A stretch of 51,885 nucleotides of DNA, from assembly GCA_046483165.1 (NCBI GenBank), contig JAWODQ010000043.1, positions 1 through 51,885 on the forward strand, read 5' to 3'. The number at the start of each line of letters is the position of its first letter. Within the stretch, counting starts at the first letter, position 1. The notes beneath the pieces are model-generated. The model had not been told where the DNA came from and made no database searches. It was given only the letters and a program-made list of their open reading frames with translations. Made by a program: the position numbers and the translations under genes. This DNA comes from Bacillota bacterium (GTDB taxonomy: Bacteria; Bacillota; Sulfobacillia; SLMV01). This document shows positions 16,221 through 20,811 of the stretch, one piece after another.

Positions 16221-16844
16221 TCACTCGTGGAGCCGCCGGTAATAGCTTTGTGCGAGGTATACGGCCGCGAGGGGATTGTGCCCGAGTACGCGGTCCTTGG
16301 CGGCCAGCACGGTGGTCGGGGCATCGGCGTACTTGAAAAAGAGACTGTCGTGCCCCACGCAAAGACCCAGGACGACGTTCATATCGGTACCCTTTTCGTT
16401 CATCAACATGGCCTGCCCGATCGGGTTACACATGGCCTCGAAGTCCGCGTCGGGGTCGAAACGAGATTGCGGTGGGATACCCACATCACCCTTATGTACG
16501 CTGCCGCAGGAGCAAACGGCGGAGACCACTTCAAAGTCTTCTTTCAGCAAGAAGTCGGCCACCACTCGGGCCTCCCTTTTTAAACCGCTACAAAAAGCCA
16601 AACCGAGCCTCTTCGCCTCCAGCCGGTGGGCAAACTCGGCGATCTCCTGGAGCCGGGTCCATTCGCAGTACCCGGTCGTCTCGACGGCGGCGGCGGTCCG
16701 AGCGATGACCCGATTCGATTCGCGCTTGTATTCTTCGAGGGCTTCGGTAAGCCAGTGCCCGTCGTTTTGCGGGCATCCCGCGGGTCGCTCCGCTTCATTA
16801 CCACTGCCGCAGGCCAGGGTTTTACACCAGGCGCAAATGCTCAT
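16221..16844 (-). CDS. DUF1847 Cys-rich putative metal-binding protein
   Basis: TRLQEI, GLAFCSGL, MCNPIGQA, GLCVGHD and KDRVLGHNP motifs. Confidence 0.8.
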   Translation of the reverse strand: MSICAWCKTLACGSGNEAERPAGCPQNDGHWLTEALEEYKRESNRVIARTAAAVETTGYCEWTRLQEIAEFAHRLEAKRLGLAFCSGLKREARVVADFLLKEDFEVVSAVCSCGSVHKGDVGIPPQSRFDPDADFEAMCNPIGQAMLMNEKGTDMNVVLGLCVGHDSLFFKYADAPTTVLAAKDRVLGHNPLAAVYLAQSYYRRLHE

Positions 16845-16925
16845 GACAATCACTCTCCCTCTCGCCTACACTCTTTACTCGAATGTTCTCGATATCCTCC
16901 GTCGATTGTGCCCGCGCCGCGCATA

Positions 16926-16954
16926 TTGCGGTCACCGGGCTCGTGGGGTATTAT
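16926..16954 (+). promoter_or_regulatory. sigmaA promoter for the T-box leader / aldolase-mtnA-serS operon
   Basis: TTGCGG-17 nt-TATTAT, about 30 nt before T-box stem I. Confidence 0.65.
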
Positions 16955-16983
16955 GAGTGCACTCGATCGAAGCGATGGATTTC

Positions 16984-17203
16984 CGATGAACGGGCAGTAC
17001 CGCGAAGAGGGCCACAGAGAGTCGGCGACGGTGGGAAGTCGATGCTCCTTGCTCGGTACCATCCACCCGGGAGGCGTTTCACCGAAGCGTGGAACGATGA
17101 CAACTTGAGACTGCCGGAGTGGATCTCTTATCGGGAGATCAACTGGGGTGGCACCGCGGGCATCTACGGCTCGTCCCTGGGGACGGGCCGATCGTCGTTT
17201 TTT
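16984..17203 (+). ncRNA. T-box riboswitch leader, serine specifier (UCC)
   Basis: GA motif (GATGAA...GGAG), AGTA box 16996, AGAGA 17016, GGTGGGA 17030, specifier TCC 17062-17064 followed by A, stem III 17122-17140, T-box AACTGGGGTGGCACCGCG 17141-17158, terminator stem 17167-17190 and T6 at 17198. Confidence 0.88.
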
Positions 17204-17216
17204 GGGGGCGTTAATC

Positions 17217-17822
17217 GTGCGAAATGACACATTACTTGGGGATCTGGTTCGGATGGGCCGCGAGGCTTACCGCTTGCGCCTAACCCCGGGCACCTCGGGC
17301 AATTTGAGTATCCGGTCGAGGCGAGGATTGATCATCTCGGGTTCCGGCGTTTCCCTCGGGTTTGCCGACAGGAAAGATTACGTGGAGGTGGCCGACAATG
17401 ATGTAAGCGGGGAAAGACGGGCATCCAGCGAGCTGCCGATGCACGCGGCCATCTACCGAAAAGTCCCTGAGGCGCGAGCGATACTGCATTTTCACGGCCC
17501 GTGGATCATCCAGATGGGAACCCGCAAGTGCCCGCATCGCTGGGTACCCGAACCCATGCCTCCGGAGTTTTCGCACCTCGCACCCGAAGGATACATCCCC
17601 CGTGTTCCCGACATGGATCCGGGGTCCGAGGAACTGGCGGAGTCGACGGCTGCCGCACTGCTTTGCGGAAGTCGAGGTGCGATATTGTGCGGACACGGCG
17701 GAGTCGCGTGGGGAGACAGCCCTCGGGATGCGTTGCACTGTGCCGAGGCAATGGAGTCGGCTGGCCGTTCCCATTACCTATACAGATTGATGAGCGTCAT
17801 CGAAGGGAGGGATATGCGGTGA
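17217..17822 (+). CDS. Class II aldolase/adducin-family protein (FucA/Ald2/MtnB-like)
   Basis: GTSGNLS, SSELPMH (catalytic Glu), HFH and GHGG metal ligands. Start set at GTG 17217 just after the T-box terminator. Confidence 0.85.
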   Translation: MRNDTLLGDLVRMGREAYRLRLTPGTSGNLSIRSRRGLIISGSGVSLGFADRKDYVEVADNDVSGERRASSELPMHAAIYRKVPEARAILHFHGPWIIQMGTRKCPHRWVPEPMPPEFSHLAPEGYIPRVPDMDPGSEELAESTAAALLCGSRGAILCGHGGVAWGDSPRDALHCAEAMESAGRSHYLYRLMSVIEGRDMR

Positions 17823-18910
17823 TCACACCGCTACGTTGGGAAGACGGCGGGTTGATGCTGCTGGATCAGAGGAAATTGCCCAAAGAAGAAACGTGGATGC
17901 GTTTGGAAACCGTAGAAGAGGCCGCGCGGGCCATAAGGGACATGGTGGTCAGGGGTGCCCCGGCCATCGGCCTGACCGCAGCCTACGCAATGGCCCTGTC
18001 GGTTCCGGAGGGAGCCGGAACGGAGCCGGATTCAGGGGATGAACTTTCCGGGGTCCTGGATCGCGAGACGCAACAGGTCATGAACGATCTTTTCGAGGCA
18101 GCCAGAATACTGGAGGCATCTCGTCCAACCGCGGCCAATCTGTTTTGGGCCACTCGCCGACAGCTGCGCGTCGCCTCGGATGTGGCGGCCGAAGGAGGCG
18201 ATATCCGACGGGGGCTTTTGCGGGAGGCGCTCCGGATGCACGAGGATGACGTAGAGGGTAATCGGCACATGGGCAAATACGGTGCCGCTCTCCTGCACGA
18301 GGGAGATCGGGTATTGACTCACTGCAATGCCGGTGCCCTCGCGACGGGGGGATACGGGACCGCTTTGGGCGTCATCAGAGCCGCTTTTGAGTCGGGCCTC
18401 AACATCGCCGCCTACGCCACCGAAACGCGTCCCTATCTTCAGGGGGCTCGTCTGACTACATGGGAATTGGTTCGCGACGGCATTCCGGTGAGGCTCTTGG
18501 TGGATAGTGCCGCCGGGTTCCTCATGGCACAGGGAGAAATCGATGTGGTGGTCACCGGTGCGGATCGCATAGCTTCAAACGGTGACGTGGCGAACAAGAT
18601 AGGGACCTATCAGCTGGCCCTGGCGGCCAGGGCCAACGACATCCCGTTTTACGTGGCCGCGCCGATATCTACCCTGGATTTCGAGATACCGGATGGCGAG
18701 GGCATAGAAATCGAGGCGCGCGATGGGGAAGAGATCACCCACTATCGAGGTGAACGAGTGGTGCCCGAGATGGTTGAGGCGGTCAACTACGCCTTCGACG
18801 TCACGCCCGCGGATTTGATCACCGCCATTATCACCGAGCGTGGAGTGGTGCGGCCGCCATTCGCTCGAGGATTGTCGCAACTCATCGAAGGAGATGTTCA
18901 TGATGCTTGA
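17819..18910 (+). CDS. mtnA: S-methyl-5-thioribose-1-phosphate isomerase
   Basis: [64 protein letters not shown] overlap with the upstream stop. Confidence 0.95.
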
Positions 18911-20189
18911 TATGAGATTCATCCGAGAGCATCCGGACCGTGTCAAAGATGCCATCGTCGCCAAAGGGGAGAGCGATGTCGATATAGACCAGCTGCTCGA
19001 GGTCGATGAGCGATGGCGAACCTATCTCGCGGAACTGGAGAGACTGCGTGCCGTGAGGAACGAGACATCCAAGGAGATCGGCCTTCGCAAGCGTAACGGC
19101 GACGACGCCGAGGAAATGATCGCCCAGATGCGCGAGGTCAATGAGGAAATTGACCTCCTGGAAGAACGCACTCAGATGCTGCAACGACAGATCGATACTG
19201 ATCTCGCCCTCATTCCCAATATCCCCCATCCCGACGTCCCCCGTGGAGACGGGGAAGAAGACAACGTGGAAATAGATCGGTGGGGGAATCCGCGGGAGTT
19301 CGCCTTCGAGCCCCAGGCGCACTGGGATCTCGGAGTTTCCCTGGGGATTTTGGATTTCGAACGGGCCACGCGGATTGCCGGCGCGCGCTTTTCCATTCTT
19401 CGCGGTGCCGGAGCACTCCTGGAACGCGCTCTGATATGTTACATGATGGACCTTCACGTCCGAGAACACGGGTACGAAGAAGTAATACCGCCATATTTGG
19501 TCAATCGGGATAGCATGTTCGGGACGGGTCAGCTACCCAAGTTCGAAGACGATGCCTTCCTGGTAGGCCGCCAGGACTACTTCCTCGTGCCCACCGCCGA
19601 AGTGCCGGTGACTAACATGTATCGAGGGGAGATGCTGTCCGGCGAAGATCTCCCCATGAAGTTTGTGGCCTACAGTGCCTGTTTTCGTGCGGAGGCCGGG
19701 GCCGCCGGCAGGGATACGCGCGGCCTGATACGTCAACATCAGTTTAACAAGGTGGAGTTGGTCCAATACACTTTCCCCGAGAACTCGTACGATACCCTGG
19801 AGGAGATGCGAGGGCAGGCCGAAAAGGTATTGCGACGTCTCGAAATTCCCTACCGCGTCCTGAAGATGTGTACCGGAGACATGGGGTTCGCGCAGTCGAA
19901 GAAATATGATCTAGAATTGTGGATGCCGAGCTACGGGGATTACGTCGAGATCTCCTCGATCAGCAACTTCGAAGATTTCCAGGCTCGCCGTGCGGATCTC
20001 CGCTTCCGCCGGGAGAAGGATTCCCGCCCGGAATTTGTACACACCCTGAACGCGAGCGGTCTGGCCGTGGGTCGTACTACGGCGTCCATAATCGAGAATT
20101 ATCAAAATGAAGATGGCTCCGTCACCGTGCCACAGCCACTGCGTCCATACATGAGAGACCTCGAGGTTATCACACCTTCGAAAAAATAG
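18900..20189 (+). CDS. serS: Serine--tRNA ligase
   Basis: [51 protein letters not shown] and [13 protein letters not shown] motifs. Confidence 0.99.
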
Positions 20190-20271
20190 GTTTTCGACGG
20201 ATTAGCGAATTGGTCTGGATACGATGACCGCCCCGAATGTATATTGGTGAATGGGAATGCAAAAGATTTGC

Positions 20272-20362
20272 GGAGGGGTGCCGGAGTCTGGCTGAACGGA
20301 ACGGTCTTGAAAACCGTCGAGGGTTCTGCCCTCCGTGGGTTCGAATCCCACCCCCTCCGCCA
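20272..20362 (+). tRNA. tRNA-Ser(TGA)
   Basis: GGAGGGG/CCCCTCC acceptor stem, ACGGT-CTTGAAA-ACCGT anticodon arm, long variable arm, GGTTCGAATCC, encoded GCCA end. Confidence 0.96.
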
Positions 20363-20387
20363 CCCATCAGGATGCATGGACTTCCAG

Positions 20388-20539
20388 TTGTCCACAGTGA
20401 TATGTACAGGCGTGGCGGGAACTGATGGAGTTATACAGACCCTGAATTGTTGATAAGCAGGGGTGTTATGGGGATAACTAGGGGTGATTGTGGATAACTT
20501 CCCCGGGTATCCCCGGGGTTTTCCACAGGTTGTGAACAA
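20388..20539. repeat. Non-origin DnaA-box cluster
   Basis: TTGTCCACA 20388, TTATACAGA 20431, TGTTGATAA 20448, TGGGGATAA 20469, TGTGGATAA 20489 (perfect), TTTTCCACA 20519 (perfect for TTWTNCACA) and TGTGAACAA 20531. Confidence 0.85.
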
Positions 20540-20570
20540 TGCCTCGTGATTGTTTTTCGTAACGAAAACC

Positions 20571-20599
20571 TTGCACCGCATAGGCGGATATGCTACCAT
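20571..20599 (+). promoter_or_regulatory. sigmaA promoter for tRNA-Ser(GCT)-tRNA-Arg
   Basis: TTGCAC-17 nt-TACCAT with extended TG. Confidence 0.75.
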
Positions 20600-20623
20600 A
20601 CTTAAGCGCCAATAAAGGGATAC

Positions 20624-20716
20624 GGAGGAGTACCCAAGTCAGGCTGAAGGGGCGGGTTTGCTAAACCTGTAGTAGGGTGACAAGCCCTAGCGAGGGTTCG
20701 AATCCCTCCTCCTCCG
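20624..20716 (+). tRNA. tRNA-Ser(GCT), CCA not encoded
   Basis: GGAGGAG/CTCCTCC acceptor stem, CGGGT-TTGCTAA-ACCTG anticodon arm, long variable arm, GAGGGTTCGAATCCCTC, discriminator G. Confidence 0.95.
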
Positions 20717-20728
20717 CACGTTATAGAT

Positions 20729-20802
20729 GCGCCCTTAGCTCAGCGGATCAGAGCGACTGGCTACGGACCAGTAGGCCGGGGGTTCAAATCCTCCAGGGCG
20801 CA
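20729..20802 (+). tRNA. tRNA-Arg(ACG), CCA not encoded
   Basis: GCGCCCT/AGGGCGC acceptor stem, ACTGG-CTACGGA-CCAGT anticodon arm, GGTTCAAATCC. Confidence 0.95.
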
Positions 20803-20811
20803 CAGCAAATT

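Follow-up and report, generated by a model that had tools for sequence, protein, structure and literature searches.

Control of the seryl-tRNA synthetase gene (serS) by a T-box, a tRNA-sensing leader RNA, has been reported for at least 29 of 34 Firmicutes (Wels et al., 2008, PMC2494555). Here we describe such a leader in a 51,885-nucleotide stretch of DNA from a Bacillota genome (contig JAWODQ010000043.1 of assembly GCA_046483165.1; hereafter the window), where it precedes an operon encoding a class II aldolase, the S-methyl-5-thioribose-1-phosphate isomerase MtnA and, in third position, SerS. The first two genes are predicted to act in the salvage of by-products of S-adenosylmethionine (SAM), and sequence comparisons indicate that the mtnA-serS pair behind a serine T-box has a long history in the class of this genome and is common there, and that it is no one-off insertion. 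In RNA architecture, serine specifier, transcription antitermination and serS cargo, the leader agrees with the serS T-boxes of Firmicutes as far as the survey cited above characterizes them, whereas here at least one salvage gene stands between leader and serS, the leader scores under the gathering threshold of its family, and the U tract is displaced by 7 nt.

Genes for cysteine and asparagine tRNA ligases often come second in T-box operons (Wels et al., 2008, PMC2494555). The present operon shares with these the placement of a synthetase gene 3' of another gene behind a single leader. In such second-position operons the first gene is typically amino-acid-related (cysE, for example), whereas the first genes are here unrelated to the cognate amino acid. 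A serine T-box controlling a non-synthetase gene is described from Paenibacillus polymyxa, where a leader with specifier AGC precedes the serine biosynthesis gene serA, and where terminator and T run are needed for regulation, an altered terminator T run giving constitutive expression (PMC8002221). As described there, that cargo belongs to the cognate pathway, whereas the additional cargo here has no evident tie to serine. Described counterparts of the salvage enzymes are the dihydroxyacetone phosphate (DHAP) shunt of E. coli, composed of MtnP or MtnK, MtnA and Ald2 and controlled by MtnR/CRP (PMC12632272, PMC10986504), and DrdK/DrdI/DrdA of Bacillus thuringiensis (PMC6079011). We found no publication that connects mtnA or mtnP to a T-box or to serS; Vitreschak et al. 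(2008) or the supplements of Wels et al. (2008) may list such operons. Sekowska et al. (2018, PMC6302742) make no mention of serS, seryl, T-box, serine or synteny, nor Beaudoin et al. (2018, PMC6079011) of serS, seryl, T-box or riboswitch. The conserved operon content, salvage genes and serS behind a serine T-box, apparently has not been reported in print. It also departs from the control of mtn genes in Bacillus, which stand under a SAM riboswitch (S-box): both arrangements are riboswitch-led, and the signal would here be the charging of tRNA-Ser, not SAM.

The leader matches the T-box family RF00230 over the full length of the model (positions 1-219; 77.8 bits, E = 2.6e-17, in a permissive Rfam scan of 16850-17260), and its parts are listed with the other features of the locus in Table 1. 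In the cmscan alignment, Stem I displays the GA/K-turn base, a specifier codon followed by a purine, the AG bulge and the distal loop, the usual AGUA/GAA S-turn letters being partly absorbed into a helix. The T-box sequence GGGGUGGCACCGCGGG (17145-17160) carries the UGGN bulge within the antiterminator, which folds alone at -11.2 kcal/mol and has 17167-17178 in common with the terminator. A preliminary description of this stretch had named a serine specifier (UCC) and a UGGCACC bulge whose C would face a G73 discriminator as two determinants of tRNA choice, and the alignment bears out both. The genome encodes, on contig C130, a tRNA-Ser(GGA) with G73 that matches the leader in anticodon and discriminator; the two tRNA-Ser of the window, (UGA) and (GCU), likewise end in G73, and UCC is the most used serine codon in long open reading frames (33%). 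Comparison with the family model thus confirms a Ser(UCC) leader, predicted to terminate transcription and to respond to tRNA-Ser(GGA), and both the RNA type and its mechanism are ordinary. Uncharged tRNA-Ser(GGA) would pair through its anticodon with UCC in Stem I and through its free NCCA end with UGGC of the T-box bulge, holding the antiterminator, whereupon RNA polymerase would read into aldolase-mtnA-serS; a charged tRNA would be unable to hold the antiterminator, and the terminator would form. The leader is presumably transcribed from the promoter-like site just upstream of it (Table 1), and similar TTGnnn / TAACAT elements precede the leaders of two family members.

Aldolase, mtnA and serS make up a single translationally coupled unit, with the overlapping stops and starts that the preliminary description had noticed: the aldolase stop and the mtnA start share GTGA (4-nt overlap), and the mtnA end and the serS start overlap by 11 nt. 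Each gene is single-copy in the assembly (137 contigs, 59% G+C, 94% complete), serS by tblastn and the aldolase as the sole PF00596 gene. This anatomy suggests that expression of the salvage genes follows the need for seryl-tRNA, in co-regulation with serS. Four metatranscriptome runs, taken as assembled contigs, were compared with 16850-20400, at a depth of 2-6. One RNA-library contig (X10, record 1) spans 16972-17308, from the leader start over the terminator into the aldolase gene, and a second (X11, record 11) spans 18873-19023, over the mtnA stop and the serS start; further pieces fall in all three genes, none of them joining the aldolase/mtnA junction, uncovered stretches being uninformative in such data. 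Since the runs are contigs, they yield no transcript starts, ends or levels, and they lend weak support to transcription and read-through. A separate contig, from run X9, joins 17118 to 17183 and omits 17119-17182, a 64-nt interval in which Stem III and the greater part of the antiterminator lie. Only one record shows this, its short side has 30 letters, and the skip is probably an artefact of assembly or strain.

Table 1. Features of the serS T-box operon and its surroundings (positions in the window).
Feature	Position	Strand	Details
Promoter-like site	16926..16954	+	TTGCGG 16926-16931, 17 nt, TATTAT 16949-16954; read from sequence
T-box leader, RF00230	16977..17181	+	Rfam full-length match
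Stem I	16983..17074	+	GA (K-turn) base, AGAGA bulge and GGUGGGAA distal loop present (cmscan alignment to model consensus)
Specifier UCC (Ser) and next purine	17062..17065	+	UCC 17062-17064, purine A17065; cmscan alignment
Antiterminator	17145..17178	+	T-box bulge UGGCACC 17149-17155, C17152 opposite the tRNA discriminator; cmscan alignment
Terminator	17167..17203	+	10-bp stem 17167-17190, 7-nt spacer, U6 17198-17203; minimum free energy folds, -19.5 kcal/mol
Class II (FucA/DrdA-like) aldolase, 201 aa	17217..17822	+	GTG start; Shine-Dalgarno GGGGG 17204-17208; PF00596, 121 bits
mtnA, S-methyl-5-thioribose-1-phosphate isomerase, 363 aa	17819..18910	+	GTG start; TIGR00512, 425 bits (cut-off 279)
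serS, seryl-tRNA synthetase, 429 aa	18900..20189	+	ATG start, own Shine-Dalgarno; TIGR00414, 535 bits (cut-off 302)
tRNA-Ser(UGA), tRNA-Ser(GCU), tRNA-Arg(ACG)	20272..20803	+	3' of serS; ARAGORN and Rfam

A relative of the aldolase is found in 32 of 41 genomes (40 relatives and the source genome). Among 30 loci compared by tblastn, that of the window included, the order aldolase-mtnA-serS occurs in 10 loci of other genomes, seven belonging to the same family (f1) and three to other families, and one more f1 locus ends after mtnA, at a cut. A T-box lies 5' of the aldolase in 8 of the 15 loci scanned with Rfam (seven from f1, one from f10). Leader, aldolase, mtnA and serS are all present in 6 of the 11 f1 relatives; three incomplete loci are cut before serS, before the leader and inside mtnA, respectively, and two genomes of genus g2 (G005, G009) have no aldolase, their T-box standing directly before mtnA-serS. 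The preliminary description had proposed to look whether aldolase and mtnA always sit between T-box and serS; for the aldolase this fails in these two genomes. Their loci, and the varying content of the interval between leader and mtnA across the class (nothing, mtnP, LUD-mtnP or the aldolase), indicate that the aldolase is a lineage-specific addition, inserted into an older T-box-mtnA-serS unit. Of the two explanations offered earlier, insertion between leader and serS or an undescribed regulatory link, the former therefore applies to the aldolase and not to mtnA, which is an old, class-wide partner of serS.

MtnA is encoded by 142 of the 151 genomes of the class, and so is SerS (142 of 151). 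Counted among the matches listed (15 and 2 further matches being left out), serS comes next after mtnA in the same orientation, at distances of -13 to 331 nt, in at least 86 of the 137 genomes having both genes and in 37 of 51 families. As an outgroup control we used 83 mtnA loci of other lineages, drawn from MtnA searches that returned loci of other phyla at about 50% identity. None of them (0/83) has serS within 4 kb of mtnA, and a class II aldolase lies within that distance in 3 of 83; the mtnA-serS link is therefore lineage-specific and not general.

To these counts we add 40 regions upstream of mtnA from outside f1, one or two per family (42 were chosen; G087 of f45 and G094 of f46 were left out). 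A T-box on the mtnA strand is present in 22 of the 40, 20 being found by Rfam and 2 added by an nhmmer profile of the collected leaders. It stands directly before mtnA in nine loci, before mtnP-mtnA in eight, before LUD-mtnP-mtnA in three, and in one locus each before aldolase-mtnA and, less directly, LUD-mtnA. Where no T-box was found, the genes are mtnP-mtnA (nine loci), aldolase-mtnA (five), mtnP-aldolase-mtnA (one), or none of the mtnP, LUD and aldolase genes precedes mtnA (three). The upstream gene of 267-270 aa is MtnP (NF005876 and TIGR01694 over their cut-offs), and that of roughly 210 aa has a LUD domain. This LUD-domain protein (about 200-220 aa; PF02589, 168 bits in L152) recurs in several families as the first gene of the T-box-mtnP-mtnA-serS operon (L141, L146, L152, L157, L163, L165). 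All 10 related leaders inspected in cmscan alignments read UCC at the specifier, with an ambiguous register in one, and an alignment of the 32 collected leaders has UCC and a following purine ahead of the closing helix in every one (32 of 32). In their bulges, 24 have C and 5 have U, both of which pair with G73, and 3 are unmatched by a simple pattern. In 10 genomes in which mtnA and serS lie apart, a T-box precedes serS in four, and the 2 kb before mtnA hold no Rfam element, SAM riboswitch included, in any (0/10).

The selected target of the leader would be serS, the only copy in the genome; mtnA is its long-standing operon partner in the class, often accompanied by mtnP, and in f1 a FucA/DrdA-like aldolase was added ahead of mtnA. 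We consider it probable that the coupling amounts to housekeeping, growth-coupled expression, the salvage genes travelling with serS and receiving no dedicated serine signal. In favor of this are the confinement of the link to the class, the persistence of the operon in loci with no detectable T-box, and the association of the T-box with serS when the two genes are apart. A rather unlikely alternative is that the coupling is adaptive, the charging of tRNA-Ser being a deliberate input to SAM by-product salvage, such that recovering the methylthio group and DHAP from 5'-methylthioadenosine (MTA) spares scarce serine. De novo methionine would cost serine twice, once for the one-carbon unit through serine hydroxymethyltransferase and once for the sulfur carrier through cysteine, as textbook pathways imply; the genes repeatedly recruited between leader and mtnA (mtnP, aldolase) belong to the same pathway, and mtnA apart from serS has no Rfam element in the 2 kb before it in the 10 genomes mentioned above. 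Moreover, mtnA and serS have stayed adjacent although the proteins share 45-60% identity, a divergence at which gene order is commonly lost. Set against this, the flux of MTA and 5'-deoxyadenosine is small beside the demand for serine, no such link appears among the 83 outgroup loci, and the operon is kept where no T-box is detected. For the class as a whole, the corresponding proposal, in which tRNA-Ser charging is the selected input to SAM by-product recycling (MtnP, MtnA, aldolase), a serine-sparing device tying one-carbon and sulfur economy to translation, seems to us unlikely.

Several observations weigh against a T-box-controlled operon in which the salvage genes are simply carried along with serS. 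Conservation of the pair over 37 families argues for a selected link, at odds with a pure passenger role. All of the 18 loci (of 40) with no T-box within about 2.5 kb upstream keep mtnA-serS, and 6 of the 10 genomes with separated genes have no T-box before serS; T-box control therefore does not extend to every member of the class. The leader itself falls short of the RF00230 gathering score of 93, and an Rfam scan of the whole window at the gathering threshold reported three tRNAs only and no T-box; a search of the source genome gave 12 T-box matches, the window leader among them, of which 6 score under the gathering score, a sub-threshold score being therefore usual for this genome of 59% G+C. 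The RNA contigs, of low depth, could stem from DNA carry-over. The displaced U tract that the preliminary description had noticed, 7 nt past the terminator stem, is reproduced by the folds, and termination, hence regulation, may be weak in this genome, given the spacer and the effect of T-run changes in the P. polymyxa leader. The U run adjoins the stem in 7 of 9 related leaders checked (L017-L021, L196, L197), and in L015 it is interrupted (UUUUGUCGUUU); only the closest relative, L014, has the arrangement of the window, GAUCGUCG separating its stem from a distal U run. Such a GC-containing spacer, shared by these two and differing from the adjacent run of 7 of the 8 other leaders, would also fit a leader that is here a relic, its proximal U run replaced, its terminator ineffective and the operon constitutively read through, and the RNA contig that crosses the terminator agrees with this. 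A working switch would yield such a contig as well, Stem I, specifier, bulge and terminator stem are intact and conserved between the window genome and L014, and a second small hairpin (17182-17196) abuts the U run, so that we regard a relic as improbable. Finally, a consensus promoter scan gave no plus-strand site in 16873-19743 and thus none inside the aldolase gene or mtnA, as had been supposed from the lack of room; yet the scan missed even the presumed leader promoter, because its first hexamer matches the consensus at only 3 of 6 positions, which makes the lack of an internal promoter weak evidence. Non-consensus promoters escape such a scan, and serS could in principle have its own promoter inside mtnA, the T-box then acting mainly on the salvage genes. 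This is very improbable: the serS start overlaps mtnA by those 11 nt, with its own Shine-Dalgarno, a serine-specific leader would make no sense if none of its cargo were related to serine, and where the genes are apart the serine T-box goes with serS in 4 of 10 genomes and with mtnA in none of 10.

The cargo of a T-box is normally used to infer gene function, on the assumption of a pathway for the cognate amino acid. With a serine T-box conserved before genes for the salvage of MTA and 5'-deoxyadenosine, deriving the function of these genes from the specificity of the riboswitch would be misleading. If the coupling were adaptive, it would connect serine supply with SAM by-product recycling in anaerobes and place T-box regulon cargo outside the cognate pathway; if it is not, the operon would clearly illustrate how genes can hitch-hike over long times on a synthetase gene that is essential. 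The conserved pairing spans a whole class of uncultured anaerobic Bacillota, and its natural variation (nothing, mtnP, LUD-mtnP or an aldolase between leader and mtnA; canonical or displaced U tract) offers ready-made comparisons.

The preliminary description had left the aldolase between the DHAP shunt and the MtnB of methionine salvage, and the evidence points to the former. No NCBIfam equivalog attains its cut-off with this protein. Residues E72, H91, H93 and H160 are invariant in 12 aldolases of this type and align with E73, H92, H94 and H155 of FucA. A profile of the 12 aldolases, compared with PDB entries, scores 126 bits with E. coli FucA (1DZW and related entries), 126 bits with 6VOP, titled 'Aldolase', and 110 bits with 6BTD, which is DrdA (PMC6079011), versus 63 bits with human MtnB (4M6R); for 6VOP and 6VOQ, both titled 'Aldolase', no source paper was traced. 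The enzyme thus looks like a FucA/DrdA-type aldolase, nearer to FucA and DrdA than to MtnB. The MtnB model TIGR03328 matches only its N-terminal half, at 59 bits where the cut-off is 137, which like the PDB comparison speaks against an assignment to MtnB. The universal (aerobic) methionine salvage pathway with MtnB is likewise not supported, a RuBisCO-like protein (PF00016) and ARD (PF03079) not being found in the 94% complete genome. Not found in it either were MtnN and MtnK; MtnP is encoded on contig C16 (TIGR01694, 278 bits versus 274.85), in a locus (L126; G000:C16:25226-28942) that reads MarR-family regulator - mtnP - ahcY and lies 3' of ndk. MtnP, MtnA and a class II aldolase with the FucA-type glutamate and three histidines together make up the enzymes of a DHAP shunt, whose predicted substrates here are 5'-methylthioadenosine and 5'-deoxyadenosine. 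As far as the described shunt systems are characterized, this set shares with them a phosphorylase, an MtnA-type isomerase and a FucA-like class II aldolase. In contrast to these systems, the SAM by-product genes here fall into two loci, mtnP lying beside ahcY and aldolase-mtnA beside serS, and the latter follows a tRNA-sensing leader instead of the MtnR/CRP control of E. coli. In the family aldolases the motif HFHGPW is conserved and an insertion is present (around RWVPxxxPPEF, alignment columns about 101-135), features that are absent from the mtnA-adjacent aldolases of other families (30-36% identity); this pattern suggests a distinct aldolase subfamily or a separate recruitment.

Of 11 related loci, 10 have tRNA-Ser(UGA) downstream of serS and 6 have the complete trio with tRNA-Ser(GCU) and tRNA-Arg(ACG), three more loci stopping at a contig edge (window, L199-L207). 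Between serS and the first tRNA gene there is no terminator-like site; a promoter-like site occupies 20216-20245. On the other side, a DUF1847 gene (PF08901, 195 bits; 16221-16853, minus strand) is divergent from the leader, and the same neighbor is found in the family loci L014, L015 and L018.

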